Source: a virus
Lineage: Duplodnaviria; Caudoviricetes
Direction: 5' to 3' (one strand)
Virus record (IMG/VR): IMGVR_UViG_3300042196_000418
Length of the DNA stretch: 64,000 bases
Part shown: in pieces, positions 2,226 through 60,863 of the stretch
Layout: each line of letters begins with the position of its first letter
Position numbering within the stretch: the first letter of the stretch is position 1
Program-made: the position numbers and the translations under genes
The notes under the pieces: model-generated
What the model was told of the DNA's origin: nothing
What the model saw: the letters and a program-made list of their open reading frames with translations, nothing else
Database searches by the model: none

Positions 2226-3032
2226 GTGACGAAGGATGACCTCGGGGATCGTTGCAAGAGTTACGAACTTGCAGAAGCAGGGCGTCGGGCGATGCGTGGA
2301 CTTCCCCTGATCGCACGGTTGGACGGGCGTGCGTTTCATACGTTCACGCGAGATCTGAGCAGGCCCTACGAACACGGCATGTCGATCGCGATGATTGAAA
2401 CCGCGCGCTACCTCGTACAAGAAATGACTCCACGCATCTGCTACACGCAGAGCGACGAAATCACGCTCGCGTGGTTCGAGTCGTCACAGTCCGCCTCAGA
2501 TTACGCGTTCGATGGACGCTTCCAAAAGCTTGCCTCCGTACTTGCTGGAATGACCTCCGCGAAATTCGGCAAACTTGTCATCGAGCACCTGCCCTCGAAG
2601 TCGATCGAGGTGCCTCACTTCGACTGCCGCGTATGGCAGGTACCAACGCTTCATGACGCAGCGGAGATCTTCCTCTGGCGCGAAGATGACGCGGTCAAGA
2701 ACAGCATCACAATGGCTGCCAGTGCCTACTACTCGCATCGAGAACTCGATGGAAAAAGCGGCTCTGTCAAGCAGGAGCTGCTCTGGCAGAAGGGGATCAA
2801 CTGGCACGATTTCCCGGCCTTCTTCAAGCGCGGGACGTATCTTCAGCGACGCGTATTCGATCGCGAATTGACCGCCGAAGAGCGAGAGCGCATACCAGAA
2901 GCGCATCGCCCGCCAATCGGTGCGACGTTCCAACGAACGCAGGTCGTAGAGCTGGACCTTCCGCCTGCGCGCAAGATCACGAATCTGATCGACGTCCTAT
3001 TTGAACGTGCTGATCCTGTGAGCGCGGCATGA
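2226..3032 (+). CDS. tRNA-His guanylyltransferase Thg1-like protein (3'-5' polymerase)
   Basis: Thg1/TLP motifs RLDGRAFHTFT, YTQSDEI, FDGRFQKLAS, FDCR and WREDDAVKNS. Confidence 0.9.
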   Translation: MTKDDLGDRCKSYELAEAGRRAMRGLPLIARLDGRAFHTFTRDLSRPYEHGMSIAMIETARYLVQEMTPRICYTQSDEITLAWFESSQSASDYAFDGRFQKLASVLAGMTSAKFGKLVIEHLPSKSIEVPHFDCRVWQVPTLHDAAEIFLWREDDAVKNSITMAASAYYSHRELDGKSGSVKQELLWQKGINWHDFPAFFKRGTYLQRRVFDRELTAEERERIPEAHRPPIGATFQRTQVVELDLPPARKITNLIDVLFERADPVSAA

Positions 3033-8203: not shown

Positions 8204-9112
8204 ATGACGAAGTGCCTCGCCGTGTCCCCATTCACGATGCCCGCCGCGCTCGCCGCTGCTGACGCCCTGCTAATCAACCCGACGTGGCGCGGCGAGCCCG
8301 GCACTGCGGAACAAACTGCCGCCTGGCTCTCCAACCCAACGTGGCTAGGAAAGCCCGACAACGAGGAGCAGGCAGTGTGGCTCAGCAGCTTTCGGCGCCG
8401 TGCTGAGCTGGCAGCTGCGATGCCCGAGATCCATCGCAACGCCACCGATTCCGCCGCGCAGCACGTGGCATGGCTGAAGAGCGAAGGCTGGGAGGCCCAG
8501 ATCCCGCAGGGCACGTCCATGGATCTTTTCCTCGCGAGCACACTGAACATCGTCGCCAAGTGGCGTGAAATCGGCCGCGCTTACCAAGAGCAAGGCATTG
8601 ATCGCGTCCTCTTGAAGAAGGGGGCGCGTGCCTCCGTGCCCGGAGCGCAACATCCCGTGGTGGCGGTCAGCACCCAGCAGGATCGTTTCAACTTCTGTTT
8701 TCAGCAAGTCGACACGGCGCCGACAACCGTGGACGCGTTGACCACGTGCGCGCTGGACATGATCGGCACCACGGCACGCGAGGAAGTCCATCTCGACTTT
8801 CCAATGGTCGATCTACTCGTACGTGACGACGCGAAGTACATGCTGGGCATCCACGCCGGAACGAACGTGATCACGCAGGCCGCCGAGCAGCTTCGCCTGG
8901 AGCTGAACGAAGTCGGTGGACGAGCGAGCGCCGCGGCGGAGATTCGGGTGACCCGGGGCATTCGCAAAACTCCCACCATCAAGCTGGACGGTCCGTTCGT
9001 GGTCGCGATCGCGATCCACCGCAACGGAACACCCCACGACGCGGCCCCGATCCTGTTCGCAGCCTATGTCGATCGTGACGCGTGGAAGAAGCCTGCCGAG
9101 GGGCGCATCTAA
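8204..9112 (+). CDS. Serpin-like protein (C-terminal serpin signature)
   Basis: EQLRLELNEVGGRASAAAEIRVTRG...KLDGPFVVAI...PILFAAYV resembles the serpin hinge, reactive loop and DxPF...ILF signature. Confidence 0.55.
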   Translation: MTKCLAVSPFTMPAALAAADALLINPTWRGEPGTAEQTAAWLSNPTWLGKPDNEEQAVWLSSFRRRAELAAAMPEIHRNATDSAAQHVAWLKSEGWEAQIPQGTSMDLFLASTLNIVAKWREIGRAYQEQGIDRVLLKKGARASVPGAQHPVVAVSTQQDRFNFCFQQVDTAPTTVDALTTCALDMIGTTAREEVHLDFPMVDLLVRDDAKYMLGIHAGTNVITQAAEQLRLELNEVGGRASAAAEIRVTRGIRKTPTIKLDGPFVVAIAIHRNGTPHDAAPILFAAYVDRDAWKKPAEGRI

Positions 9113-9279
9113 CAGGCCCGCCCGACACGACACGGGCCGCAAACGGAGAAAGGAGAACGGAGAACGGCACGATCCACTCCCGGGAAGCACACTTCGAGTC
9201 CCGTCTATTTTCCGGGAACCGCGGATTCGAGTCCCGTCCGAGTCGTACGGTCATCTCGCCACGCTTATAACTAGGTGCG

Positions 9280-9789
9280 ATGAAAGAGCCCAGCGACGCG
9301 GAATACCTCCCGATGATTTACGTCAAGATGACCTCTAAGGGGCCGCAGGTCTACGTCGGCCCTGTCAAGCCGGCCGTAAAAGACGTTGCCCACGCTTACA
9401 CTGACAAGGTCCTCGACCCATCGAAGAAATGGGTGTTGCCGCTGTCGACGGGCGTCCCGGTCTTGCCCACACAGTCAGCACACATCACTGCATGCCCGAG
9501 GATGCTCTGTGTGCCAAACCGCTTCATGATCTCGAGCTCGGGTACGGCAGGAGGGGCAGCTGACTGGATCGTCAAAGACATCAAGATCGACGGCTGCTCA
9601 CAATTCAGAAGACCAGGTGATATTTCCGGAGAAATGTTCGCACCGAACGCGGGCATTGCTTCGGATGTGCTTGAACGCTTCGTTCAGTTCACTGCGATCC
9701 AGCCGAACACGGATGTTGATATAATTGTGACGTACGTCGGTATTAACGAGCATGGCTGCCCCTTGTTCGCGTCGCTGGATCGGGATTGA
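9280..9789 (+). CDS. Hypothetical beta-rich protein
   Basis: Clean ORF; function not recognised. Confidence 0.5.
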   Translation: MKEPSDAEYLPMIYVKMTSKGPQVYVGPVKPAVKDVAHAYTDKVLDPSKKWVLPLSTGVPVLPTQSAHITACPRMLCVPNRFMISSSGTAGGAADWIVKDIKIDGCSQFRRPGDISGEMFAPNAGIASDVLERFVQFTAIQPNTDVDIIVTYVGINEHGCPLFASLDRD

Positions 9790-9836
9790 CAGCACTGATC
9801 CCACCAGCCTGGGCAGACCATCACCTCGTCGCGCAC

Positions 9837-10295
9837 TTAGCGGCAGCCGAGACCAACGCGTCGACACGCGAGGGCCTTGTCCTCGGCACACGGCATAAAA
9901 TCTTGTCCGCTCATGATCCCGCACGCCGTGTGCGTGCTCGTATCGAGCACCGCGTGCCCGACCTCGTGGGCAAGAGCCACCCACAACCCGAAGCCGGTCA
10001 AGTCCGCGCGTATCTGGATACGACGCTCCAACCTGTTCGTAACGCCGCCCGCATTTTTGGGCGTTTGTGCCACGCGCTCGACGAGCACGGCCGAAATCTG
10101 ACCCCCCGTCTTTACACGGACAAGTCCGATCGAGGCCCAGCCAACGAGGGCCTTGTCCAGATCAGCCTCCAGGGTTGGATCCGGCACGATCAGCTCAAAA
10201 GTCACGCGGCCTGTCTGCTGCCCCGACGGCAAGGAGCGCTCCGGCAGATGACAGCACGCGAGCAGCAACACTACGAAGATCATGCCTGTGCGCAT
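9837..10295 (-). CDS. Putative lipoprotein zinc metalloprotease (matrixin-like)
   Basis: Signal/lipobox LLAC, AHEVGHAV and downstream GIM (Met-turn-like). Confidence 0.6.
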   Translation of the reverse strand: MRTGMIFVVLLLACCHLPERSLPSGQQTGRVTFELIVPDPTLEADLDKALVGWASIGLVRVKTGGQISAVLVERVAQTPKNAGGVTNRLERRIQIRADLTGFGLWVALAHEVGHAVLDTSTHTACGIMSGQDFMPCAEDKALACRRVGLGCR

Positions 10296-10324
10296 GCTTT
10301 ACAGAATGGCACGAGCGCGCGGCT

Positions 10325-10543
10325 TCAACGCATTTTTTGCCACGGCCCGACCTCGTAGTCGCCGACCTCGTAGTCGCCGGCCGGCAGCTCGAAGCGCCGT
10401 GGATCCTGATAGCCGCACGCCAGACACCGCGGATTGAGCGCCTGGCAGTCTCGAGCCGCCCTGCACCTCGGGCAGGTGAACGTGCTCGTAGCCACATCGA
10501 CGCCCGGTGCGAAGCCTCGGACTTCTTCCTGGTCCTTTTTCAT
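10325..10543 (-). CDS. Small zinc-ribbon protein
   Basis: CPRC...CLAC; in-frame 15-bp duplication (GDYEV x2, 10347-10376); TACACT 7 nt upstream of the ATG. Confidence 0.55.
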   Translation of the reverse strand: MKKDQEEVRGFAPGVDVATSTFTCPRCRAARDCQALNPRCLACGYQDPRRFELPAGDYEVGDYEVGPWQKMR

Positions 10544-10719
10544 AGTGTTTAGTGTACACCATTGGGCACGGATGGGTGCGTAGATACCCATGTCCCGGTG
10601 CGACGTCTTGAGTGTGCCCCAAAAGCCTCAGGTTCCCCAATACCCACCCCTCTTCCTCAAAAGCTCGATCAACGTTCGGTAATCACGCGCGTCGATGCGC
10701 GGCCCGCGAGAGCTGCTCG

Positions 10720-10788
10720 GACAAAAGTAGAACGGCGTCGCGACAGAAGTAGAACAGCCTCTACCTCAAAACTCGACAGAAGTAGAAC
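10720..10788. repeat. Left subterminal repeats: GACAGAAGTAGAAC x3 and CTACCTCAAAA
   Basis: Copies at 10720 (one mismatch), 10742 and 10775; CTACCTCAAAA at 10761. Confidence 0.85.
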
Positions 10789-10895
10789 GGGCTAACGGCG
10801 TCACGGCAGACGGGATACGCGGCGACCCACGTGTTCCGACATTCACGATCACGTGGCGCGCTAGAGACGGGGTTCGCCGACACCCCGGCGCTCCC

Positions 10896-11210
10896 TTACC
10901 AGCCGCGTTCGCGTTTGTTCCGCGCCCACTGCTCGCGCTGCTCGCGACGGATGCGCCGGGATTCCTCTGCGGTGAGGTCAAGCACGATGGGACCGGGCAT
11001 GCTGTTCAGGATGTCCATCGTTCGCACGAAAAATAGCGCGCGATCGACATCGATGAGCCGTTCACCGTTTGCAGCTCGGGTCGGGCGAAGGATGTCGTCG
11101 ATCCTACGAATGCGCGCTGCGGTCCATCCCAGCATGCGCGCGACGGCATGGATGGTCACGACGTGCTTCGAGCCCACGGGCGGCATGCGATTGGGATTTC
11201 GCTGGCGCAT
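10896..11210 (-). CDS. MerR-like HTH protein
   Basis: TIHAVARMLGWTAARIRR...PTRAANGERL pattern. Confidence 0.5.
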   Translation of the reverse strand: MRQRNPNRMPPVGSKHVVTIHAVARMLGWTAARIRRIDDILRPTRAANGERLIDVDRALFFVRTMDILNSMPGPIVLDLTAEESRRIRREQREQWARNKRERGW

Positions 11211-11268
11211 CTGCCGTTCGTAAGGCGCACGAGGCTAGACCGCAATGGCAGGCGAGATCCCGGGCTAC

Positions 11269-11697
11269 CTACTTCTTGCGCAGTGCTTCCGCGATCTCGG
11301 CATCGAGCTGCGCCGACGTCTTGCGGTCCGTGCGATGCCCGACGAGAACTGTCGCGGTACGTAAGCCGTGGCGATGTGCCGTAAGCATCCGATGCGTACC
11401 GTCGAGAACAGTGCCGTCATCGAAAGCCAAGATGGGACTTGCATGGAGAGCTTTTGCGAGTCCGCCGCGCGCCTTCGCCCACTGCTCGATGGTTTCGATT
11501 CGATCTAGATCGTCTTTATCGAGTGGTTGTCGCGCGTAGTCTTCAAGCGTTCCGACACCTGAAAAACGGAACCACCCTAAGGGACGCTTCTCTTCTGTCC
11601 AGGGCAGATCAAATTCATCACCTTCGAGAATGAACTCGGCGTCTGGCGATCTTGTGGTGACGTCGTTAACAACCTTCAGACCCTTCACGCCCGTCAC
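11269..11697 (-). CDS. ParB/Srx-like domain protein with C-terminal AQLDxEI motif
   Basis: PILAFDDGTVLDGTHRM; ends KTSAQLDAEIAEALRKK. Confidence 0.7.
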   Translation of the reverse strand: MTGVKGLKVVNDVTTRSPDAEFILEGDEFDLPWTEEKRPLGWFRFSGVGTLEDYARQPLDKDDLDRIETIEQWAKARGGLAKALHASPILAFDDGTVLDGTHRMLTAHRHGLRTATVLVGHRTDRKTSAQLDAEIAEALRKK

Positions 11698-12216
11698 TCA
11701 CGCGCACTCAACGCGGTTGGTGCGGCACCATTCGTAGGCCGCGTCTTTCGCTGCGGTCATCGCAGCCTTCTTGCTTGAATAGCCGCCTTCGGCGACGAGC
11801 GACTCGGTGAAGCTGCCCGTGTCGCTGTCGACCGTGGCGAGCGCCCACCACGTGCCGCCCTTCTTCAGCGCTCCGTAGTACACGCCGTCGCCTTTGCTGC
11901 CCATGTACTCGGCGTCGTCCCAGTCGAGGTGCGGCGGCGCGCCGTACTTCGCCTGCGTCTTTGAATAGGCGCTTTCCGTCTCCGGGATCTGTTCGGTGAC
12001 AGTGAAGCTATGGGCGCCCTTTGATTTCTCGTTGAGCACGTGGACTGCCGCGCTGTCCTTGATGAGACCGCGTGGATCGGCGAGGAAGTATTCGCGCACG
12101 TAAGAAGGGATCTGCGAGCCCTTCTTCCATTTCCCTTCGCCGCGCTTTACCGCCAGCAGGCCAAAGCCTGAGATGGCTCGTTGAACCTTTGCCGTCCATG
12201 TCGATTCAGACTTCAT
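11698..12216 (-). CDS. Hypothetical protein
   Basis: Clean, coupled ORF. Confidence 0.65.
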   Translation of the reverse strand: MKSESTWTAKVQRAISGFGLLAVKRGEGKWKKGSQIPSYVREYFLADPRGLIKDSAAVHVLNEKSKGAHSFTVTEQIPETESAYSKTQAKYGAPPHLDWDDAEYMGSKGDGVYYGALKKGGTWWALATVDSDTGSFTESLVAEGGYSSKKAAMTAAKDAAYEWCRTNRVECA

Positions 12217-12422
12217 TTGTACCGAACCTCGTCGATATGCTCAGCCGCCTTCTGGACGGCCTGCCACGCCTTGTCGAGGGCCTTATAGGTGGCCGGCGGA
12301 GCGGCGCCTTGTAGCGCGAATGCTTGGGTGAGTTCGCCCTGCACCTCGCCCAGCAGCTCGAAGATGAGCGTAAGCTTCCCGTACATCGCAGGGTTGTTTC
12401 GTTTCGCCTCCGTGCTCGCCAT
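12213..12422 (-). CDS. Hypothetical protein (probably leaderless)
   Basis: TACCAT 6 nt upstream of the ATG; coupled to the next gene. Confidence 0.55.
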   Translation of the reverse strand: MASTEAKRNNPAMYGKLTLIFELLGEVQGELTQAFALQGAAPPATYKALDKAWQAVQKAAEHIDEVRYK

Positions 12423-12485
12423 GCAGCGATGGTAACAAAACGACTGGACTTTCGTCCATTTTGTTACCGTCGAGTCGCACGTCTG

Positions 12486-12758
12486 CTAGCCGATCACCTT
12501 CCCGCAGTGCGGGCACGTCGGCTTGGGCAGCGCGATGCCCTGGATCACGTCGTGGAGCGACACCTCCAGGAGCTTGGCGATGCGGAACGCGATCGTGGTG
12601 CTCACCTCGGAGCGCCCCGAGGTCATCTCGACGCGCTGGCTGTGCGAGATCGGCAGCGCGCGCTCGACGGTGAGCCAGTTGCCGAAGCGAGCTCGCAGCG
12701 CGCGTAGCGTATCGAGCACGTTCTGCTGCTCGATGCGGGACAGGTCGCGGTACGGCAT
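12486..12758 (-). CDS. XRE-like HTH protein with CPHC zinc knuckle
   Basis: Helix pattern ...SEVSTTIAFRIAKLLEVSLHDVI...CPHCG; directly downstream of the transposase. Confidence 0.6.
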   Translation of the reverse strand: MPYRDLSRIEQQNVLDTLRALRARFGNWLTVERALPISHSQRVEMTSGRSEVSTTIAFRIAKLLEVSLHDVIQGIALPKPTCPHCGKVIG

Positions 12759-12760
12759 GA

Positions 12761-14125
12761 CTACTCGATCTCCTTCGGACGATCGAACCGTGCACGCGTT
12801 GTCTCAGGAGGCTGCATGCTTCCGAAGTCAGGCAGCTTGGCGATCAGATCTTGCGCCCAGTAGCGCGGATCGACGTTCAGCTCCTGCACTGCCGTGATGA
12901 GCTGCGCGATGTTGTGACAGACGAGGCGGAGCATCACCTCCGCGCACTGCGCGTTCAGGGCACGCGATCGGAGCGCGTGCCCGAACCGCGACTTGATGGA
13001 ATTCATGCCCGCCTCGGCCAGCGTGCGCCAATCGTAGTTCTCCCAATATAGGTCCTGGTCGTCTTTCATCCTGTTGTAGAGGCGACCGACGGTCTCGGGC
13101 TGGGTCTTCCCGGTGACGTTGTCTCGAAAATCAAAGAACGGCGTGGCGCCGATCTCCTCGACGGCGAGGACGTTGTACCAAGAGTTGTAGGCTGAATCGC
13201 CCAGCCACTTGGCCACGCGCCCGCCGTTGGCCACGATGCGCCGGACCAGCTCGGGCATGAGCGGGCATTCACCGATTTTATCCGTGACCTGCGCAGCGGG
13301 AGCCACGAGCGTCCGCACGCCAAAGACGATCGTCGCGTTGAGCCAGCGGTGCCTCAGCGTGGGAAGTCGTTGCTGCTCTTCCTTCCCGTGCTTGCGCGTG
13401 AAGTGGTGATCGTACACAGAGCTTCCGAAGCCGGTACCGTCGATCGCGAACGTGTCCTCAAGACCGATGAGCGGCAACGCGGAGCCCGCGAGGAGCCGAT
13501 GGAGCAGCACCATGTGCTCGGGCTCTGCGAACACGCGGAGCAACGTGTTGTAGGACGGCACCTGCGTCATGCGGATGAGACCCGCCTTGCAGTAGAGCTG
13601 GACCTGGACAACAGCCTCAGCGGCGGTCAGGTTCTCGAAGGCTCTAATCAGCGCGGTCAGCAGGACATCACGCAGCGGAATTGCGGGCCGACCATTCTCG
13701 CCGATCACGCGACCACTCAACCCGAGGCCGTCTACAAGCAGCTCGCAGTAGTGGGGAGCCAGGTGCGGGATCAGCGTCCGGCAGGCATTCGTCGCCTTCC
13801 AGTCGCGCGTGAACGCCCTCCTTAGCTCCTTCGGCTTGCGCGGCTTCTGCGTCACGATCAGCTCGCTACCGTCCGCCAGCTTCAGGACGTGAACGACGGC
13901 CCAAATGTGCTTGCAGCGATGGGGTCGATCGTGGCCACCGAGCCGGGACCAATCGAGGCACGAGCATGTCTCGGCCTTCGTGTCGACGACGTAGGTGCTG
14001 CCGTTGCTCGCTGCGCTCGGCACGAGGTACTTCGCGCCGACCAGAACCTTGATCGCGTCCTTCTTTGCCTTGGCGATCGCAAGACCCCGCTGCGAGCGGA
14101 CGTCCGAGGAGATCTCTTCGTTCAT
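12761..14125 (-). CDS. Transposase: N-terminal SWIM zinc finger plus IS4/IS5-superfamily DDE domain
   Basis: CSCLD...CKHIWAV (SWIM); AIDGTG, LGDSAY, YDWRTLAEAGMNSIK (YREK-like) and LVCHNI. Confidence 0.9.
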   Translation of the reverse strand: MNEEISSDVRSQRGLAIAKAKKDAIKVLVGAKYLVPSAASNGSTYVVDTKAETCSCLDWSRLGGHDRPHRCKHIWAVVHVLKLADGSELIVTQKPRKPKELRRAFTRDWKATNACRTLIPHLAPHYCELLVDGLGLSGRVIGENGRPAIPLRDVLLTALIRAFENLTAAEAVVQVQLYCKAGLIRMTQVPSYNTLLRVFAEPEHMVLLHRLLAGSALPLIGLEDTFAIDGTGFGSSVYDHHFTRKHGKEEQQRLPTLRHRWLNATIVFGVRTLVAPAAQVTDKIGECPLMPELVRRIVANGGRVAKWLGDSAYNSWYNVLAVEEIGATPFFDFRDNVTGKTQPETVGRLYNRMKDDQDLYWENYDWRTLAEAGMNSIKSRFGHALRSRALNAQCAEVMLRLVCHNIAQLITAVQELNVDPRYWAQDLIAKLPDFGSMQPPETTRARFDRPKEIE

Positions 14126-14208
14126 GATATCTATTGTATAGCTGGTAGATATGACAGATCATGGAATTGACTCCGTGCGCTAACCGATATACAAGCGCTA
14201 TCAACAAC

Positions 14209-14427
14209 ATGGCGACCAAGACGAAACCAGCGGCCAAGAAGGACACGTCGGAAAAGAAGCGCCGCAAGGCCGTACTCAAGGACAAAGGGATCCTGGTCCG
14301 CGTCACCGCAGACGAGAAAGAAGCGATCGAGGCGGCAGCGAAGAAAGAGCACCTCGCCGTCTCGACATGGTTGCTGACTGTGGCGTTTCGCGAGATCGAG
14401 AGGCAGGCGAAGGCCGCTGCGAAGTGA
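14209..14427 (+). CDS. Ribbon-helix-helix DNA-binding protein
   Basis: ILVRVTADEKEAIEAAAKKEHLAVSTWLL; divergent from the transposase. Confidence 0.7.
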   Translation: MATKTKPAAKKDTSEKKRRKAVLKDKGILVRVTADEKEAIEAAAKKEHLAVSTWLLTVAFREIERQAKAAAK

Positions 14428-15306
14428 TCAGTTCAGATCGGATCCTTCCTCCGAGACGGGCACGGTCAGCGCGTACAGCGCTCCGTGCTCGTTCGCGCCG
14501 TGGAACGCGATGACGCCCTTCTCAAGTAGGCGCAAGAGATCATGCCTGAGCGTCGCCTCATTGAGCTTGCGGCCCTTGCGATGCAGACGGCTCTCGACCT
14601 GGCGCGCAATGAAACGCTGACCCAGCGGCAGACTCTCGTTCGAGAGGACGTCGACAATCATCGCGGGGATCGAGTCGACGCGCGCCGCGACGTCAACGCC
14701 AGGAAGCGCCCACGTCGTGTTGTGGTGCGCGCCGTGACGCTGTATTCGCTTCTTGCGCTCAAGGTACTTCAAGAGGCTCCAGACGTTTGGGAGCGCCAGG
14801 CGAATCCTCTTTGCAATCTCGCTCGCCCGGAGACCTGTCCGATCAGCGTCGAGAAGCTTGAGAATTCGATCCGTGTGCTTTTGAGCTGGCCTCTTGTTTC
14901 CAGGCTCGCGTAGTCCCGCGCGTTGAAGGCGCCTTCGGAAGTTGGTGCGATCGACGCCTGCGATGCGCGCTGCATCGCTAATGGTGCCGTTTGACTGTTC
15001 CATGATGCGCGTGAGGTGATCGCGCTCGATATCTTCGGCCGCACGGCGCTTGGCCACCTCGATCGGTACATCAGTCGGCGTCTCGATCGTGGGCTCGGCC
15101 GTCGGCGTCTCGATCATGGGCTCGGGCGTCGACGCGGTAGTGGTGCCCGCAGCGTTCGTAGCGGCAGCGAGCCTTTCCTCGATCTTGAAGTAGATTGCCT
15201 CGCACTGATCGTCGGTGAGCTTGTCCACCGCTGCGATTGCAACCGCGAGCAGCTCGGCCTTGAGCAAGGCAAACTGGCGGGCCTTCTCGCGTGGGTTCGT
15301 CGGCAC
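14428..15306 (-). CDS. Fis-type HTH plus winged-helix DNA-binding protein
   Basis: ERDHLTRIMEQSNGTISDAARIAGVDRTNFRRRL followed by wHTH-like segments; 27-bp tandem repeat in the linker. Confidence 0.7.
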   Translation of the reverse strand: MPTNPREKARQFALLKAELLAVAIAAVDKLTDDQCEAIYFKIEERLAAATNAAGTTTASTPEPMIETPTAEPTIETPTDVPIEVAKRRAAEDIERDHLTRIMEQSNGTISDAARIAGVDRTNFRRRLQRAGLREPGNKRPAQKHTDRILKLLDADRTGLRASEIAKRIRLALPNVWSLLKYLERKKRIQRHGAHHNTTWALPGVDVAARVDSIPAMIVDVLSNESLPLGQRFIARQVESRLHRKGRKLNEATLRHDLLRLLEKGVIAFHGANEHGALYALTVPVSEEGSDLN

Positions 15307-15373
15307 CCATGTGATTTCGCACGACGACGCATCACGAAAGCCTGCGAATGATCTCGCGCTTCGTGACTCGGGC

Positions 15374-15514
15374 AGTAACAGATCGGGCTGTCGGCCGCGT
15401 TGTTTTGTTACCTTCGGATGCCCTAGGTAACAGAACGGGTCGGTCGAGCGTCTGATCTGTTACCTATCGGCGCGTCGAGTAACAAAACGGACCGCTGCGA
15501 CGGTGTTTGTTACT
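15374..15514. repeat. Three inverted-repeat units RGTAACARA...TYTGTTACY with 52-bp period
   Basis: Units at 15374-15412, 15426-15464 and 15478-15514; a fourth unit at 12431-12468. Confidence 0.8.
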
Positions 15515-16112
15515 CCCTGTGTTGGGAAAGGTACGTCGTCAAGGTGCGTGGCTTGAAACGCTTCCCGCGTATCCCGCCCTCGTAGAGTCGCTGGGACATC
15601 TCGGTGGCGCCGACCTCCCATTCGAGCATCTTCAGGAAGACCTCGTGCTTTGCGACCGACGGTGTGCGTCCTGCCTTCGACGGCCAAAGCTTGTCCAACT
15701 GCTCTGCGTGCCATTGCAGCGTCGTTCGGATCAGCTCGGCCGCGTCCAGGAGCGTCGCGGCTTGCCGTCGAAGATTCTCGCGTATCCCGCCTTCCACGAG
15801 CTGATCGAGACGGCCCTCGGTGAGTCGCATATGCGGGCCGTCGTGTTTCCACTTCAGCTTGTCCAGGATCACGCTGCGCGCGTAGCGCGAAGGTTTCACG
15901 TCGCGAAGCTGGTACTTGAAGGTACTGAGGCCCTCTAGAAGATCGGCGCTCCGATGAGCAGCGTGGCCTTCTCTCTCGATCATGTCCGCAAGCCTCGTCG
16001 CCTCGTCGCGGAACTTCTTCTTGTCGAGATCGCAGACAACCGAGATCCAGGCGGTCAGCGCTTTCCAGTCCTCTTTCGTCGCAGGCTCGAACTTGCGCTG
16101 CTTCTTGGCCAC
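15510..16112 (-). CDS. Hypothetical transposon cargo protein
   Basis: Clean 200-aa ORF inside the TIRs. Confidence 0.65.
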   Translation of the reverse strand: MAKKQRKFEPATKEDWKALTAWISVVCDLDKKKFRDEATRLADMIEREGHAAHRSADLLEGLSTFKYQLRDVKPSRYARSVILDKLKWKHDGPHMRLTEGRLDQLVEGGIRENLRRQAATLLDAAELIRTTLQWHAEQLDKLWPSKAGRTPSVAKHEVFLKMLEWEVGATEMSQRLYEGGIRGKRFKPRTLTTYLSQHRE

Positions 16113-16269
16113 TTGCCGAGATCGTCGAACGGCCGATCGCGCGGCGCAAAAAAGAGCGTGGCGTTTCGTCGGTTACGTAAGCACGTCGAGAAGTGCGCAA
16201 CCCTGAAAAGGAACGAATGCAGACGCATCCCTTCGAGACCGAGCTGCGGCTCTTTTCCGGTCGCGCGCT

Positions 16270-16349
16270 GTTCTACTTCTGTCCGCTACCTCAAAAGGCG
16301 ACAGAAGTAGAACTGCGCAGCGTTCAACTAGAGTCGCGTTACCTCAAAA
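16270..16349. repeat. Right subterminal repeats: GACAGAAGTAGAAC x2 (one inverted) and TACCTCAAAA x2
   Basis: 16270-16283 (reverse) and 16300-16313; TACCTCAAAA at 16287 and 16340. Confidence 0.85.
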
Positions 16350-16432
16350 CCCATGTCGGTTCCCTAAAACCCCCGATTTCCGACGAGGTTTTGGGGCACA
16401 CTCACGACGTCTTCCCGTATCACTCCTGCAAC

Positions 16433-16510
16433 GGGTACCTTGATACCCAGGTGTCCTTGCGCGGACTTGCCTGCTTCACTGGGCTTTCCCAGCCCGGCAC
16501 GCTGCGTGTA
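16433..16510 (+). promoter_or_regulatory. GGGTA-N6-TACCC palindrome plus sigma54-like box
   Basis: Palindrome 16433-16448; cGGCACGctgcgtGTa at 16495-16510, 14 nt before ATG 16523 (GT in place of GC). Confidence 0.65.
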
Positions 16511-16522
16511 CTACCAAACAGC

Positions 16523-17020
16523 ATGACGACCGTAACGATCGACACCAGCAAGAACGACGACACGAGTAACCTCATGGTCCAGATCAAGCTCCGTGATCGC
16601 GACCTCAACGCCAAAGGCAGCGGCACGGAGGAGCATCGCCTCGTCGTGCTACTCGACACCGCGCCCGAAGATCCTACCGTCATGGGCACGGGGCGAGCGA
16701 AGTGGGCACGTGACTGCGCGGAGCGCGTGACTGGCGACTGGCTGCGAATGGATTTCCGCGCGGCGAATCGCAAGTGTGGCGAGCGTGGATGGGTCCCGAT
16801 CGGCACACTCGTGATCGCGATCGACAAGTCGATTCGCGGCTACAAAAGTGAGGGACGTGCAACCTACGCGCTCGGTGTCGTCGGCGCCGATGCGGAAGGA
16901 AAGACCAAGATCACGTGGAACCTGCCCGGCAAGGACGGCCACGTTAAGGTCGAGTCCAACGGATCGGGTTGGACGCACACGATCGTGTACCAGGGTCGCC
17001 GCTACGAGGTGCGATCGTGA
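16523..17020 (+). CDS. Hypothetical protein, first gene of the + operon
   Basis: Start placed outside the transposon, just downstream of the promoter motif. Confidence 0.65.
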   Translation: MTTVTIDTSKNDDTSNLMVQIKLRDRDLNAKGSGTEEHRLVVLLDTAPEDPTVMGTGRAKWARDCAERVTGDWLRMDFRAANRKCGERGWVPIGTLVIAIDKSIRGYKSEGRATYALGVVGADAEGKTKITWNLPGKDGHVKVESNGSGWTHTIVYQGRRYEVRS

Positions 17021-17647
17021 ACGCCCGCGACATCGAGAAGCAGATCCTGAACCTCATCGAGTCCTCGTTCGAGGACACCCGCGTCCCCGACGCGATCGCC
17101 GCGCACGCCGACAAGCGCACAGGCAAGTTGGTCACCAAGACCGACGCGGAGCAGCTCGAAGCACAGCTCGGAGTCCCCGTGCGCATCCTGCGCCGGTACG
17201 GCATGACGCAGGTCGCGAAAACGGGTATCGAGATCCAAGCAGTGACCTCTCCGATCAACGCAGCAATCGACGCGGCAACCGGAGCCAGCACAAGTACCGC
17301 CACACGATTCATCGAATGGGCCACGCGCGAGCACTGGGGCATCGAGCACGCGCCCGTGGCGTACCAAAAGGCGCTCACCGCCAAGGAAGCACAGATCTGA
17401 TGGGCACAAAATCGACGCGCAAGTACCCGCGGTGGATCGTCCTCTACTACATCCACACCCCCGGTTCGACGTGGCTCGGAAAGGGCGTGGAGTTTTTCGA
17501 CGACGAAGCGCCTGCGCGTGAGCGTGGTCGCGTAACAAACGGCACCAGCCGCCCGTTCTATCCGCCCTGGGATCGCCAGTACCTGGGCGCCGCACAGGGG
17601 CACGCCAACCCTGTAGCCTTGACGGCCTACCTTCAGGAGTACCGGCC

Positions 17648-18094
17648 GTGACGTGCGGTCGCTGCCGCGAGAGCGGCCACAACCGGACGACGTGCCCCAA
17701 GTCAGAGCATCTGCCGCAAGCGCCGCCCGCCGAGCTGCTGCGGGTGCTGATCGATCCGATGCATGCGCTCACGCTCGTCACGGAAGGCAAGACAGCTGAG
17801 GCGCTTGCGAATGCCACGCGTCAAATCGGAGAACTCAACCGCGACGGGCTCGGGCACCTGGCGTGCAGCGACATCTTGATCGCGCTCGCCGAGTTGGAGC
17901 TGCGCTCCAGGCAGATTCCTGCGGCAATCGAAAACGTCCGATCAACACGCATGTCCGTCGAATCCGCCAAAGCAGCGCTCGCCGCCGCCAGGCACGAACA
18001 TGCGCGGTCCGAAGCCGAGATCCTCATCGCGCTCGGGTACCACGAGAAGGCCGAAGCATTGGGCTTCCCCCTCCTGCACGAACGAACCTCCTGA
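17648..18094 (+). CDS. CCHC zinc-knuckle protein
   Basis: CGRCRESGHNRTTC. Confidence 0.55.
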   Translation: MTCGRCRESGHNRTTCPKSEHLPQAPPAELLRVLIDPMHALTLVTEGKTAEALANATRQIGELNRDGLGHLACSDILIALAELELRSRQIPAAIENVRSTRMSVESAKAALAAARHEHARSEAEILIALGYHEKAEALGFPLLHERTS

Positions 18095-24643: not shown

Positions 24644-25762
24644 ATGCAGGACCTTTACGCGGTGCTCGGTGTCGAGCGAGCAGCATCCCAGGCCGACCTC
24701 AAGAAGGCGTACCGAAAACTCGCGCAGCAGTACCACCCCGATCACCACCCGGGTGACAAAAGCGCCGAGGACAAGTTCAAGGAAGCTGCGAACGCCTACC
24801 ACATCCTCTCGGACGACGAGAAACGTGCCGCCTACGATCGCTGGGGCCACGACGGCCTACGCCGCGGCGGCGGTGGAGCTGGTCCAGGCCCCGGCCCAGG
24901 AGGATTCGGCGGCGGCTTCGAGAACGTTGAGGATATCTTCTCCGCGTTCGGCGATCTATTCGGCGATTTCTTCGCGGGGCGTGGGAGAGCGCGACAGGCA
25001 GGGCGCGGCGCCGATCTCAGCGTCGATCTGTCGATCGCGTTTCACGAGGCCGTGTGGGGTGTGCGAAAGAGCGTCGAGATCACGCGATCGGTTGGCTGCT
25101 CGACGTGCCGCGGGACTGGCGCAGCAAACGGCGTTAGACCAGAAGTCTGCCGCGGATGCCAGGGTAAGGGCCAAGTCACCCACCCCCAGGGTTTCTTCAT
25201 GGTGCAGACGACGTGCGCGCAGTGTCAGGGCGCTGGCAAAACGATCAAAGATCCCTGCCGTGACTGCCGTGGTCGCGCGATCCGGTCGGAGACCTCGACG
25301 CTGACCGTGACCGTGCCGGCCGGCGTCGACAAAGGGCAGACACTTCGCATCGCCGGCAAGGGCGAGAGCCTCCCTGGCGGCACCCCGGGCGACCTCTACG
25401 TCATACTGCTCGTCGCCGAGGACAAGCGCTTCGAGCGTGACGGCAACGACATTATCAGCGAGGTGCCCATCAGCTTCTTCCAAGCCGCGCTCGGCGGCGA
25501 GATCGAGGTCGACACACTCGACGAGGGTTGTGAAGGAACTGCGATCCTCGAGCTACGGCCCGGGACACAACCCGGAGACGAGATCGTGCGCCGCGGCCAA
25601 GGCATCCAGCACGTGACCGACCACGGTCGCGGCGACCACTACATCCGCTTCTCCATCGAGATTCCCAAGAAGCTGACCTCCAAGCAGGAGAAACTCCTGC
25701 GCGAGTTAGCAGCAGATTTCGGTGAGGATCGATCACGCCCCAAGAAGAAGGCGAAACGGTGA
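24644..25762 (+). CDS. dnaJ: Chaperone DnaJ (full-length class A)
   Basis: J domain with HPD, G/F linker, four CxxCxGxG-type repeats and C-terminal domain. Confidence 0.95.
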   Translation: MQDLYAVLGVERAASQADLKKAYRKLAQQYHPDHHPGDKSAEDKFKEAANAYHILSDDEKRAAYDRWGHDGLRRGGGGAGPGPGPGGFGGGFENVEDIFSAFGDLFGDFFAGRGRARQAGRGADLSVDLSIAFHEAVWGVRKSVEITRSVGCSTCRGTGAANGVRPEVCRGCQGKGQVTHPQGFFMVQTTCAQCQGAGKTIKDPCRDCRGRAIRSETSTLTVTVPAGVDKGQTLRIAGKGESLPGGTPGDLYVILLVAEDKRFERDGNDIISEVPISFFQAALGGEIEVDTLDEGCEGTAILELRPGTQPGDEIVRRGQGIQHVTDHGRGDHYIRFSIEIPKKLTSKQEKLLRELAADFGEDRSRPKKKAKR

Positions 25763-28461: not shown

Positions 28462-30163
<1,702 letters not shown>

Positions 30164-41688: not shown

Positions 41689-42297
41689 TCAGGAGAGCCC
41701 CTTCCCATTAGAACCACCGTGAATCGCGCACCCTGCGTCACGACAGCCGCCTGCCTCGGACAGGATCGCGCTCGCGAGCTTACTGGCCAGTGCGGCGCTC
41801 TCGTCGGAGACGTAGGACAGCTCGTGGTAGCCGCTCACCGAGTAGCCGATGAGCTGCGCGAGCTGCTCCTCATCTTCCTGCGGGAAGTCTTGCGTACCGG
41901 TCCAGTTCAGACCGCCGTCGGAACGCGCTGGGAAGTCGGGATACACCCTGCCGCGTTCGGTATCACGATCGAGGAGTGCGTCCACGATCGTGTTCTTGCG
42001 GAAGCGGATGGTACCGCGTGCGTCCACGTGGACGGGCTGCATGGGATGCGGATCATAGCCCTTCAGTTTCTTCCCGCCGCCGAGCAGCGGAAGCGTGGGC
42101 CGCGTGACGCGGAGACCGAGAAGCTGTGCGAACTGCATGTGATCTTCGGGCGGAGCGTCGAACTTCACGATCTGACCAAGAGCGCCGCCATCGCGGTCGA
42201 ACAAGGCTCGAACGATCGCGTTCGCGCGGAAGCGAACCACGCCGTGCTCGTCTTGGATGACAGGCTGCATGGGATGGGATGGCAGCTCTTTCTTCAC
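41689..42297 (-). CDS. Hypothetical protein with duplicated HPMQPV domain
   Basis: HPMQPV...RFR.N.IV.AL.DRD...AQL.G occurs twice. Confidence 0.7.
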   Translation of the reverse strand: MKKELPSHPMQPVIQDEHGVVRFRANAIVRALFDRDGGALGQIVKFDAPPEDHMQFAQLLGLRVTRPTLPLLGGGKKLKGYDPHPMQPVHVDARGTIRFRKNTIVDALLDRDTERGRVYPDFPARSDGGLNWTGTQDFPQEDEEQLAQLIGYSVSGYHELSYVSDESAALASKLASAILSEAGGCRDAGCAIHGGSNGKGLS

Positions 42298-42707
42298 GAG
42301 GATTTTCTCCCCCAGCGCTTGAGGCGCTTGGGGCGCGGCGCCATCTTGACGAGTCCGTGCCGCTGGAGCAGCCGACGAAAGTTCGAACGATCGACACCGG
42401 CCAAGAGCGCAGCATCCACCGCCGATCCCTTCGCGGACTCCATCGCGCGCACGAGATAGTTGCGCTCGAACGCGGTCGTTGCCAAGCGCTTCGCTTCGGT
42501 GAGCGGCATCAAGGTCCAGTCGACGATCAGTTCGAGCTGACGTGCATCAACCGCGATCGGCAGGCTCCAGTGCTGCTGTGCACCGCGCCAGCGGCAAATT
42601 CGAAGTTGCCCGGAGCTCTTGGAGGTGCCGACCACGATCGCAGCACCCTTGGAAGAGGTGCGCATACGATCGTAGACGATCTGGCCGATCAAAAGGCTGG
42701 TCTTCAC
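42294..42707 (-). CDS. Fis-type HTH protein lacking an AAA+ domain
   Basis: FERNYLVRAMESAKGSAVDAALLAGVDRSNFRRLLQRHGL. Confidence 0.75.
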   Translation of the reverse strand: MKTSLLIGQIVYDRMRTSSKGAAIVVGTSKSSGQLRICRWRGAQQHWSLPIAVDARQLELIVDWTLMPLTEAKRLATTAFERNYLVRAMESAKGSAVDAALLAGVDRSNFRRLLQRHGLVKMAPRPKRLKRWGRKSS

Positions 42708-46011: not shown

Positions 46012-46809
46012 TCACGGCAGCACGATCCCCGCCTCGCCGATCGCGAGCTTTTGCGCCTGAGTCAGATTGTCGACGAGGCCGCACTTGTTACACGCCATGC
46101 CCACGAGCGCGCGGGTGACCTGGTCGGCCGTCGAGTGGACGTCGCCGATCGGAAAGCAGTTGCTCGTCTCGCCGGCAACAATCGTCCCGTCGCACGAGAT
46201 ACTCGGCGAACAGTTGCCCGACATACCGAGCGCGGCCCGCGCGCGCAGCATCGTCAGCGCGGCGCGAACGTCGCCGAGCGAGCGCGTGAGCGAGCGCAGA
46301 TTGAACGACGTAGGTCCCTTGCGAACGGGCAGGCCGTCCTTGCCAGAGTGAGCGCGCGCAGGCTTCATGCGGCCGAGCGGAATCAGGATCGAGAGCGTCG
46401 GCACGAACACGACACGTGGATCGTCCGTCGGAACAGCCGTCGGCCGCCTTGGATAGAAGCGTGGATCGTTGGTGATCTGCACCATCAGGCGCGGCCATTC
46501 GGGCCGCAGGATCTTCGCCCGGAGCGTCGGATCGTCGAGCCACATCCCGTTGGTGATGAGGATGACGTCGTACCCTCCGTCAATCACCGTCGAAAGGAAC
46601 CACTCGACGTCGGGGTGCTCGGTAGCCTCGCCACCGCTGATCAGGATCCGGCGCGGAATGCCCGAACGCCACGCGTCGCCTTCGAGACGCTCGGTGAGCG
46701 CGAGCGCAGCAAGAAAAGTCTCGCGCGTCATGTGCTCGCCAGCTACCGTGGACCCCTCGGAGCAGTGGTTGCAGCCCATGGAGCAGTAGTTCGTGATCTT
46801 GATCAGCAC
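46012..46809 (-). CDS. Radical SAM protein
   Basis: CSMGCNHC, ISGGEATEHP, ITNG and a C-terminal Cys cluster. Confidence 0.85.
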   Translation of the reverse strand: MLIKITNYCSMGCNHCSEGSTVAGEHMTRETFLAALALTERLEGDAWRSGIPRRILISGGEATEHPDVEWFLSTVIDGGYDVILITNGMWLDDPTLRAKILRPEWPRLMVQITNDPRFYPRRPTAVPTDDPRVVFVPTLSILIPLGRMKPARAHSGKDGLPVRKGPTSFNLRSLTRSLGDVRAALTMLRARAALGMSGNCSPSISCDGTIVAGETSNCFPIGDVHSTADQVTRALVGMACNKCGLVDNLTQAQKLAIGEAGIVLP

Positions 46810-47576
46810 TACTCGCCCCACCCACGCAAATCGTTGGCGACGTCGAGCCAATATTGCGACTTCGCCAGCATCTTCTCCGCAGCTTTCGCGCGCCCGGCCT
46901 CAAGCTCCTCGTTGTAGTTGCCGAGATAGCGTGCGGCCATCGCCTCGGCGTGCACGATGCGCTCCCCGACGGTGCGCTTGGTCATCGTCTTCGCGGTCAT
47001 CTACCGCTTCCTCCGCCGACGGCCGAACAGGCCCGCGACCAGATCGGCCGCCATGTAGCCCGCGATGCCGGCGCAGATGCCACGAGCTTCCGCTGCGACG
47101 TTGAACGACCGCAACCGCATCACGTGCAGGAAGAAGTACGCAACAAGGATCGCGATCATGACGATGCAGAGACGGCGGACGGTGTCGCTCATGGCTTGGC
47201 CTCCGACTTGGGAGAGAGCTTGACGAAAGCCGCGAACGCAGCGTCCTCGATCACGCGCGCGGGCACCATGCCGCTGCGCGGCTGCATGAACTTCTCGTCG
47301 TCGAGCACCAGCTCTATCGCCGTGCGGATCACGGCCCGCGGCTGCGCGCCGAGGAGCAGCCCGTGCGCCATGTCGACAGCGCGCTTGCGGACCTCGGATC
47401 GCGTCCAGATCTTGCCCTTGCGGCTCGTGATCGTGTAGCGCTCCTGCCACTCCTTATCGGTCATGGGCGCTTGCTCCCACAGCGGTTGCAGCGACCGTCC
47501 GATCCTTGCGTGCCGTTGCAGCGGCCCCAGATGCAGGACTTCGCGGCGAGAAAGCGGCGAACAGTGCTCGTGGTGC

Positions 47577-60851: not shown

Positions 60852-60863
60852 GTCCCTCAACTA

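Follow-up and report, generated by a model that had tools for sequence, protein, structure and literature searches.

A recently mobile SWIM-IS903-type cargo transposon that very probably homes to a fixed step from phage promoter palindromes

INTRODUCTION

To our knowledge, transposases of the IS4/IS5 type are taken as autonomous single-protein enzymes with a weak target preference. IS903, in the IS5 family, is a 1.06-kb insertion sequence (IS) with a single gene. IS903 and IS903B generate 9-bp target duplications (PMC9769513, PMC10569121), and the inverted repeat of IS903B is GGCTTTGTTGAATAAATC (PMC10569121). Here, we describe a 5.8-kb element found in a 64,000-nucleotide stretch of viral DNA (Duplodnaviria; Caudoviricetes; IMG/VR record IMGVR_UViG_3300042196_000418), the whole of which is called the window below. 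The element is very probably a recently mobile cargo transposon of a SWIM-IS903 type that homes to a fixed step from phage promoter palindromes. In contrast to IS903, members of its family measure 4.9 to 12 kb and have four further conserved genes, cargo, and long asymmetric subterminal regions. The window element also differs from IS903 by an added SWIM module and by insertion at a set distance from one kind of palindrome.

Elements of other kinds choose their targets in a comparable way. Ty3, which integrates at RNA polymerase III start sites, as well as Ty1 and Tf1, insert at a short, constant distance from promoter elements and avoid coding DNA, probably by recognizing a binding site for a transcription factor or the factor that occupies it. 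The window element shares this concept, but these yeast elements are eukaryotic long terminal repeat retrotransposons with integrases, which share no homology with it and use a different mobilization chemistry; here, a phage-like genome is the host, and an upstream palindrome of bacterial type serves as the landmark. Phage Mu, which integrates almost at random, has in common with our element several subterminal sites arranged differently at each end and an operator-like dyad cluster near one end. By analogy, the internal dyad cluster of the window element could double as a transposition enhancer, as in Mu. The window element, however, lacks a MuA/rve-type transposase and the MuB ATPase; it is 5.8 kb long and has no virion genes.

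Tn7 has asymmetric ends with several internal sites, and it inserts in a specific orientation at a fixed distance from a recognized sequence, in a "safe" intergenic place. Its cargo region is variable (PMC8649781). The window element is alike in outline, with asymmetric multisite ends, an oriented fixed-distance insertion, and cargo beside one end. However, Pfam, NCBIfam, and PHROG scans of its nine proteins gave no match to rve (TnsB-type), AAA+ (TnsC-type), or TniQ, the type of protein (TnsD/TniQ) that selects the target in Tn7-like elements, and no TnsA was found. Tn7 also makes a 5-bp duplication at a single attachment site, whereas the window element has a 9-bp duplication, a regulatory palindrome of which each phage genome has many copies, and a single Tn5/IS903-type transposase. 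It is an IS4/IS5-superfamily DDE transposon working like a target-selecting Tn7 without sharing the Tn7 proteins.

RESULTS

Occupied and empty alleles define a mobile element

Metagenome contigs from public sequencing runs were compared with the window over positions 9000 to 18000. A 1,797-bp contig of run X2, which is a sediment metagenome from another study, joined position 10600 to position 16405, with exactly 5,804 bp skipped. It matched 9517-10600 and 16405-17117 without a mismatch. Nine nucleotides at the joint fit both sides, the empty site being one copy of CGACGTCTT. Run X1, like the window, had the filled site. The site thus exists in an occupied and an empty form, which differ by the element plus one duplication copy. 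Contigs of run X3 that were about 95% identical to the element stopped matching at 10610 and 16403 and continued into unrelated flanks; the sequence past 16403 was consistent with the palindrome-distance rule described below. The segment from 10610 to 16403 is a real, intact, recently mobile DDE transposon.

The ends were analyzed within the window and across the family. TGAGTGTGCCCCAAAA had exactly two matches in the 64 kb, at 10609-10624 (+) and 16389-16404 (-), and CGACGTCT was directly repeated outside both ends of the element, at 10601-10608 and 16405-16412. These are the perfect 16-bp terminal inverted repeats (TIRs) and the 8-bp target-site duplication proposed in an initial annotation, which had been made from the window alone. 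The letters are present, and comparison within the family parses the same letters as termini GAGTG...CACTC, at 10610-16403, plus a 9-bp duplication, CGACGTCTT, at 10601-10609 and 16405-16413, which abuts GAGTG on the left. The inverted part of the ends comprises the terminal 15 bp only. The 14-bp subterminal repeats that the annotation saw at both ends also held: GACAGAAGTAGAAC occurred at only five sites (Table 1), all within 200 bp of the element ends, against a chance expectation of 0.24 matches, and five were reached in 0 of 100 shuffles. A second repeated motif, C(T/C)ACCTCAAAA (the CCTCAAAA motif), was found at 10650, 10759, 16284, and 16337. The composite unit CCTCAAAA-N-GACAGAAGTAGAAC had an identical orientation at the end near gene A (End A) and at the end near the cargo (End B), and the element ends are therefore asymmetric. 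About 190 bp of the subterminal region of End B was conserved in relatives.

Table 1. Coordinates of the element, its target, and related features in the window, with duplications and End A-to-palindrome distances at the family loci
Feature	Coordinates	Strand	Description
Distal target palindrome	10574-10589	.	GGGTGCGTAGATACCC; 20 bp outside End B
Target-site duplication, left copy	10601-10609	.	CGACGTCTT; 9 nt shared at the empty-site joint
End B (cargo-side) TIR	10610-10624	+	GAGTGTGCCCCAAAA; X3 contigs cease matching exactly at 10610
End B subterminal region	10630-10788	+	GGTTCCCCAATACCC; CCTCAAAA at 10650, 10759; GACA(G/A)AAGTAGAAC at 10720, 10742, 10775; as GACAGAAGTAGAAC sites, 10720 (1 mismatch), 10742, 10775 (+)
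Cargo gene 4	10896-11210	-	104 aa, no significant family; homologue adjoins End B in L029 (68%) and L048 (85%)
Cargo gene 3	11269-11697	-	142 aa; DGTHR motif; C terminus bears phage portable tag ...KTSAQLDAEIAEAL
Cargo gene 2	11698-12216	-	172 aa, no family
Cargo gene 1	12213-12422	-	69 aa, no family
Post-E dyad	12431-12468	-	GGTAACAAAA-N18-TTTTGTTACC; between gene E and cargo
Core gene E	12486-12758	-	90 aa; XRE-type helix-turn-helix (HTH) and C-terminal CPHCG knuckle; 90-99% identity (six complete elements)
Transposase	12761-14125	-	454 aa; SWIM C54, C56, C71, H73; DDE D229, D310, E371; Y364-x2-R367-x3-E371-x6-K378
Core gene C	14161-14427	+	88 aa; ribbon-helix-helix (NikA/Arc-like); antisense between B and transposase; 52-98% identity (six complete elements)
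Core gene B	14428-15306	-	292 aa; HTH_8 (91-129), winged helix (147-185); 50-64% identity (six complete elements)
A-B control region, conserved	15332-15513	-	three dyads GTAACnAAA-N17-TTTnGTTAC (15513-15479, 15464-15426, 15412-15375) and a TCACGAA...TTCGTGA dyad (15366-15332)
Core gene A	15510-16112	-	200 aa; all-helical; 35-68% identity (six complete elements)
End A subterminal region	16270-16371	.	GACAGAAGTAGAAC at 16270 (-), 16300 (+); CCTCAAAA at 16284, 16337; GGTTCCCTAAAACCC at 16357-16371
End A (gene A-side) TIR	16389-16403	-	X3 contigs cease matching exactly at 16403
Extra A (16404), then right duplication copy	16404-16413	.	CGACGTCTT
Promoter-proximal target palindrome	16433-16448	.	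GGGTACCTTGATACCC; 29 bp outside End A; landmark conserved across family insertions
Sigma54-like box and ATG (16523) of downstream phage gene	16495-16525	+	cGGCACGctgcgtGT; both intact after insertion
Phage Fis-HTH protein, outside element	42294-42707	-	137 aa, AAA-less; only other such domain in window
9-bp duplication, L027			GTATGAAGC; perfect
9-bp duplication, L031			GTTCGCAGT; perfect
9-bp duplication, L036			TGTCGCTAT; perfect
9-bp duplication, L037			TGTGCCGTG; perfect
9-bp duplication, L029			TCACAGGCC; perfect
9-bp duplication, L033			8/9 match
End A-palindrome distance, window			29 bp; includes extra A
End A-palindrome distance, L027, L037, L033			28 bp each
End A-palindrome distance, L036			28 bp; imperfect palindrome
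End A-palindrome distance, L031			27 bp; imperfect palindrome
End A-palindrome distance, L030			30 bp
End A-palindrome distance, L029			29 bp
End A-palindrome distance, L040			27 bp

Homologues of the transposase numbered 54, all of them metagenomic (loci with L numbers). Inverted GAGTG(T/C)GCCC pairs flanked the transposase gene in L027, L031, L033, L036, and L037, with L033 and L034 being one element, while L029 and L040 had variant ends beginning GGC(A/T)G(C/T)GCC. Duplications of 9 bp bordered six of these elements (Table 1). The elements were 4.9, 5.5, 5.8, 6.4, 6.7, 7.8, and about 12 kb long. The initial annotation had been right to delimit a transposon here and to propose two checks: the exact empty site was recovered in an independent run, and transposases 57 to 91% identical to that of the window bear homologous ends with their own 9-bp duplications. 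The transposase genes of L048 and L053 were truncated, and L045, L046, and L049, whose transposases were 49 to 52% identical, had different ends with no clean duplication definable.

At L036, a target sequence of about 37 bp (GCCGGCACCCGGATACAGCGCGTGTCGCGTGTCGCTA) was found on both sides of the element (L036:7680-7720 and 13225-13270) besides the 9-bp duplication. A short tandem repeat with half of a palindrome in it may have been the target, or else a longer duplication arose.

Insertion at a fixed distance from a palindrome

A palindrome of the GGGTA-N6-TACCC type lay 27 to 30 bp outside End A in nine loci, that is, at every End A visible. The relaxed form GGT-N8-ACC, which has a density of 3.6e-4 per base, ended 28 to 31 nt from End A in all seven loci scored (p ~1.4e-20), and L029 and L040 obeyed the same distance rule. 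Outward from End A, the order was the 9-bp duplication, 19 unconserved nucleotides, and (A)CACG-GGTA-N6-TACC-C. Past the palindrome, a GG-N10-GC box of sigma54-like -24/-12 type followed about 45 to 50 nt on, with an ATG about 14 nt later and the phage gene pointing away; this promoter part was clear in the window, L040, L037, and L031. The element therefore lies upstream of a promoter cassette, facing away from it, and cuts no gene. Because the same end stood at a fixed distance from the palindrome in nine independent insertions, insertion is site and orientation specific. The palindrome is the landmark, with distance fixing the insertion point, and the asymmetric CACG extension may set the orientation.

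When the insert was removed, the GGGT-N8-ACCC palindromes at 10574 and 16433 stood 55 bp apart, start to start, as first calculated in the initial annotation, and an intact pair in the window (48065/48120) had the same 55-bp spacing. The annotation had concluded that the insertion split a pair of operators. The two palindromes are indeed separated, the window element sitting between them. In L031 and L036, both palindromes were on the End A side; pair splitting is therefore incidental, a by-product of homing to one palindrome, and the "operators" are the upstream palindromes of phage promoter cassettes that are sigma54-like by pattern.

A GGGT-N7/8-(A)ACC motif, resembling the target palindrome, was also present in both ends of the element, at 16357-16371 and 10630-10644. 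After insertion, the End A copy sits 76 bp from the target palindrome, where it might act as a substitute upstream site. The idea that it replaces the displaced palindrome was dropped, since the phase of 76 bp does not clearly agree with that of the natural spacings of 53 to 55, 63, and 73 bp.

An IS903-type transposase with a putative SWIM module

The transposase matched Pfam DDE_Tnp_1 (PF01609) with 27 bits against a cutoff of 23. Its score for Pfam SWIM (PF04434) was 18 bits, under the cutoff of 19.6, and some relatives carry a precomputed PF04434 match. In an alignment of 23 sequences, C54, C56, C71, D229, D310, R367, E371, and K378 were invariant and H73 and Y364 nearly so. Of the SWIM-DDE transposase named in the initial annotation, the DDE part is upheld by the DDE_Tnp_1 match and the conserved DDE/YREK residues, and the SWIM part is probable from its conserved Cys and His residues.

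The same annotation could name no transposon family for it. The best NCBIfam model, NF033579, is shared with IS903B: the window transposase scored 77 bits, thus missing the curated cutoff of 140 bits, whereas transposases of a distant clade (see below) scored 126 to 127 and IS903B (reference from plasmid Rts1, L066:1333-2301) scored 356. In hhalign, a profile of 36 members matched IS903B with a probability of 95.6% (E 1.3e-8, 268 columns), and residues 111 to 406 of the window protein aligned with residues 22 to 302, nearly the whole IS903B enzyme, the DDE and YREK residues being common to both. An AlphaFold2 model of the transposase had a predicted local distance difference test (pLDDT) score of 77. 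Its best structural match in VIA-align was Tn5 transposase (1muh_A; Z 17.0, root mean square deviation 3.9, 254 residues, model residues 117 to 416), with the N-terminal DNA-binding and catalytic domains both included; integrase structures gave a Z of only 8 to 9. The protein is thus a putative N-terminal SWIM module of about 105 aa joined to a complete IS903-type enzyme (IS5 family, Tn5-like fold), which places it in the IS903 group after all.

The 9-bp duplication of IS903B is common to the window element, its relatives, and the distant clade. The ends of IS903B begin with GGC (GGCTTTGTTG...); those of the window element and its close relatives begin with GAGTG(T/C)GCCC instead, while those of the distant clade begin with GGCTTTG, like GGCTTTGTTGAATAAATC. 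Tn5 (IS50, IS4 family) has in common the YREK signature and a 9-bp duplication, with a sequence identity of about 11%, but unlike the window element it has no SWIM module, accessory genes, or site-specific targeting. A profile search of 1.8 billion representatives returned 1,150 clusters at an E value of ≤1e-30, most of them 400 to 430 aa and full length. The fusion of SWIM and transposase is therefore widespread, although it was unnamed in the sources read.

A conserved core and a variable cargo region

The core was defined by an all-versus-all BLASTP comparison of the open reading frames (ORFs) of six complete elements together with a tblastn search of the nine window proteins against all loci. 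A 4-kb core was conserved in a fixed order: A, three dyads, B, C (antisense), transposase, E, and a dyad. Transposase identity between the six complete elements was 66 to 91%. Gene E, which starts 2 nt past the transposase stop, was 83 to 98% identical across all loci of the close clade; in loci with 56 to 69% identical transposases, identity was 29 to 37% for A, 40 to 42% for B, and 83 to 88% for E. The C-terminal region of B is read as a second winged helix. Protein A belonged to no Pfam, NCBIfam, PHROG, or PADLOC family, had no PDB sequence or Foldseek match, and had no informative Atlas neighbor.

The three A-B dyads and the post-E dyad were kept in all elements examined. The conservation of E is paralleled by that of the equally conserved GGTAAC...GTTACC dyads, which suggests that E is an operator-binding repressor. 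Most likely, E and C repress the element's own promoters via the conserved dyads, and the post-E dyad is a probable operator. A GGGT-N8-ACCC site over the start codon of gene B (window 15293-15308) was present only in the window and in L027, its closest relative, and absent from the other four elements; autoregulation of B through this site was accordingly dropped as general evidence.

The post-E dyad marks the boundary between core and cargo, because homology between elements stopped directly past it; contig variants diverged at 12414-12473 in four runs. From this dyad to End B (window 10610-12430), the elements were unrelated except for the End B-proximal 104-aa gene, found also in L029 and L048. 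Of the eight passenger genes counted at first, four are therefore cargo in the strict sense, and the genes at 15510-16112, 14428-15306, 14161-14427, and 12486-12758 are core, and all close relatives have them together with the transposase. The product of 11269-11697 had been called a tagged ParB-like protein. Its C terminus does carry the phage portable tag, but the ParB call, made by eye from the DGTHR motif, had no Pfam support at E values up to 5. The tag, K(K/T)(S/T)xAQL(D/N)xEI, occurred in the cargo of the window element, L027 (twice), L033, and L036. Its presence inside the cargo of four elements identifies the cargo as phage-type genes. Cargo proteins of the window element and five other elements mostly belonged to no family, and no defense system was recognized in the close clade.

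Two further observations concern the cargo. Within the cargo of L037, 13377-14090 is a homologue, with 41 to 46% identity over short stretches, of the phage gene 9280-9789, which adjoins the window's own insertion; phages thus appear to be the source of cargo genes. The cargo of L029 contains a nested IS1595-type transposase gene (L029:7270-8304, +; DDE_Tnp_IS1595 plus a zinc ribbon), which accounts for part of its size of about 12 kb.

Host lineage and a distant clade

The flanks of L030, L033, L040/L041, and L048 encoded homologues of other window genes at different map positions. Members of the family have therefore inserted on many occasions within a single phage-like lineage, one of huge, uncultured elements of soil and sediment in which the window element resides. 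A megablast search of phage and plasmid collections with the whole element gave no match; with the transposase as tblastn query, phages gave no match and plasmids only IS5 genes of haloarchaea, at 25% identity. A scan of viral contigs with the single transposase protein found nothing, whereas an alignment-based scan did find relatives. The neighboring phage gene 9280-9789, searched for in viral contigs with a view to an empty site, had no relative there.

The distant clade, from IMG/VR contigs, had transposases with 24 to 32% identity in elements of 3 to 7 kb, with ends beginning GGCTTTGC(A/C)C. Duplications were 9 bp in L001, L004, L005, L009, L010, and L015 and 10 bp in L011. An E-like gene with 35 to 40% identity directly followed the transposase in several of these elements; A, B, and C were not found in the clade, and its insertion sites had no common motif or palindrome beside them. 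The element at L015:7312-11537 contained a gene for a BstXI-type restriction endonuclease (L015:7427-8392, +; Pfam E 7e-104), adjoined by a 391-aa ORF on the opposite strand. This gene suggests defense cargo in the wider family. Just past the right end of L010 (11891-11960), further partial copies of its own end sequence were seen (GGCTTTGCTACGCATTCG...), which suggests insertion beside the remnant of an earlier copy.

In the window, the genes of the host genome include those for a calcineurin-like phosphoesterase (496-1443), a Thg1-like tRNA-His guanylyltransferase (2226-3032), a full DnaJ (24644-25762), a collagen-repeat protein (28471-29292), a radical SAM protein (46012-46851), and a PAPS-reductase-like protein (59508-60860). 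This mixed gene content is typical of very large phage-like elements.

DISCUSSION

By homology to IS903 and Tn5, the DDE enzyme would move the element by cut and paste, with staggered target cuts 9 bp apart; IS903 can also yield cointegrates. The transposase, possibly with A or B, would bind the subterminal repeats. A DNA-binding protein of the core would read the palindrome, or a protein bound to it, and deliver the transpososome one fixed step away.

Several points weigh against homing to promoter palindromes as set out here. At the right junction in the window, a single extra A (16404) separates CACTC from CGACGTCTT. No palindrome was found at L032, which has End B only, or at L053/L061, a truncated relic in a Kofleriaceae metagenome-assembled genome. 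Surviving insertions are biased to intergenic, palindrome-rich DNA, so that the p value is less extreme than stated, although a 10-fold enrichment would still leave it tiny. A sigma54-like promoter in the cassette is suggested by its pattern, checked in part. The link between protein B and the palindrome is one of analogy. Finally, the empty site in run X2 could be an ancestral allele that was never occupied, which is a simpler reading than precise excision; the insertion is still proven.

Which core protein reads the target can be narrowed to a few candidates. The Fis-type HTH of B (residues 91 to 129) was 55% identical over 55 aa (E 3e-16) to the phage protein encoded at 42294-42707. The two proteins share the predicted recognition helix, DR(S/T)NFRR, which does not vary among B orthologues. 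The phage protein has a short beta-rich N terminus followed by an NtrC/Fis-type HTH; it is conserved in L031 and L040/41, and nothing else is as closely related to the B domain. Dimers of the Fis/NtrC-type HTH bind palindromes of such a size. B is the best candidate for the target selector because its HTH is akin to that of the phage protein, because such dimers bind palindromes, and because the distant clade, which lacks A, B, and C, has no shared palindrome beside its insertions. By this analogy, B may be the selector, though we hold this with less than even confidence. We are a shade more tentative about the fuller version, in which B would be a captured copy of the phage's enhancer-reading Fis-type domain, serving as a ruler-like selector for a single-subunit transposase of the Tn5/IS903 type.

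It is also possible, though short of probable, that the targeting is real but is read by the SWIM module of the transposase, by E, or by A, leaving B as only a transcription regulator or an architectural protein bound to the ends. The SWIM module sets the whole family apart from IS903, E as the most conserved protein (90 to 99% in complete elements) fits the reader of an invariant DNA site, and the GGGT-N7/8-AACC motif at both ends means that one protein could bind ends and target alike. However, the distant clade has both SWIM and E but no palindrome at its insertion sites; the conservation of E is matched by its putative operators; and only B has a domain close to a phage DNA-binding protein. 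A complex prediction for the transposase and E gave a score of 0.00, which counts neither for nor against binding.

Homing of either kind has to be set against an ordinary untargeted IS903-like transposon whose insertions survive only in short intergenic promoter regions, an explanation that we consider improbable. It would fit a gene-dense genome in which palindromes mark most intergenic promoter regions, a distant clade of the same transposase family without a common target motif, and the duplicated 9-mers, which share no consensus. But a constant distance of 27 to 30 bp would not follow from selection for intergenic sites, nor would the placing of End A toward the palindrome and promoter each time in nine independent events. 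The intergenic regions measure 150 to 300 bp, so that for any one event a hit within 4 bp, on a given side and in a given orientation, is unlikely. Least credible of all is a nonautonomous composite or defective block moved by interphage recombination, with the empty site being a homologous replacement: the divergence of contig variants at 12414-12473 shows recombination within the family, and the transposase genes of L048 and L053 are truncated, but the window transposase is intact with all catalytic residues, the 15-bp TIRs are perfect, copies have their own 9-bp duplications, the empty site is exactly one 9-mer copy, and the insertions lie at nonhomologous positions of related genomes.

Literature searches found no description of a SWIM-IS903 or SWIM-IS5 transposon or of any transposon of huge phages. 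Nor did they turn up IS5 elements that carry accessory genes and insert site specifically, or transposons that home to the palindromes of phage promoters. An IS4/IS5-type enzyme in a conserved five-gene unit with oriented, site-specific insertion points to a compact form of protein-guided target choice, in which the selector is probably an exchangeable HTH domain; the Tn5-like enzyme class is the one used in tagmentation and transposon mutagenesis.

For the genomes that harbor it, the element is a parasite of virus-like genomes and a likely vehicle of gene exchange between huge phage-like elements. It is also a natural marker of phage promoter architecture, and a polymorphic insertion that separates the palindromes of one cassette offers a natural mutant for testing whether the pair is needed for downstream expression. 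If B is indeed a captured Fis-type domain, cargo would spread between coinfecting huge phages without gene breakage and promoters might be rewired. Such an element would represent an undescribed pathway of protein-guided targeting in the IS4/IS5 superfamily and a bacterial-virus counterpart of the promoter-tethered Ty elements.

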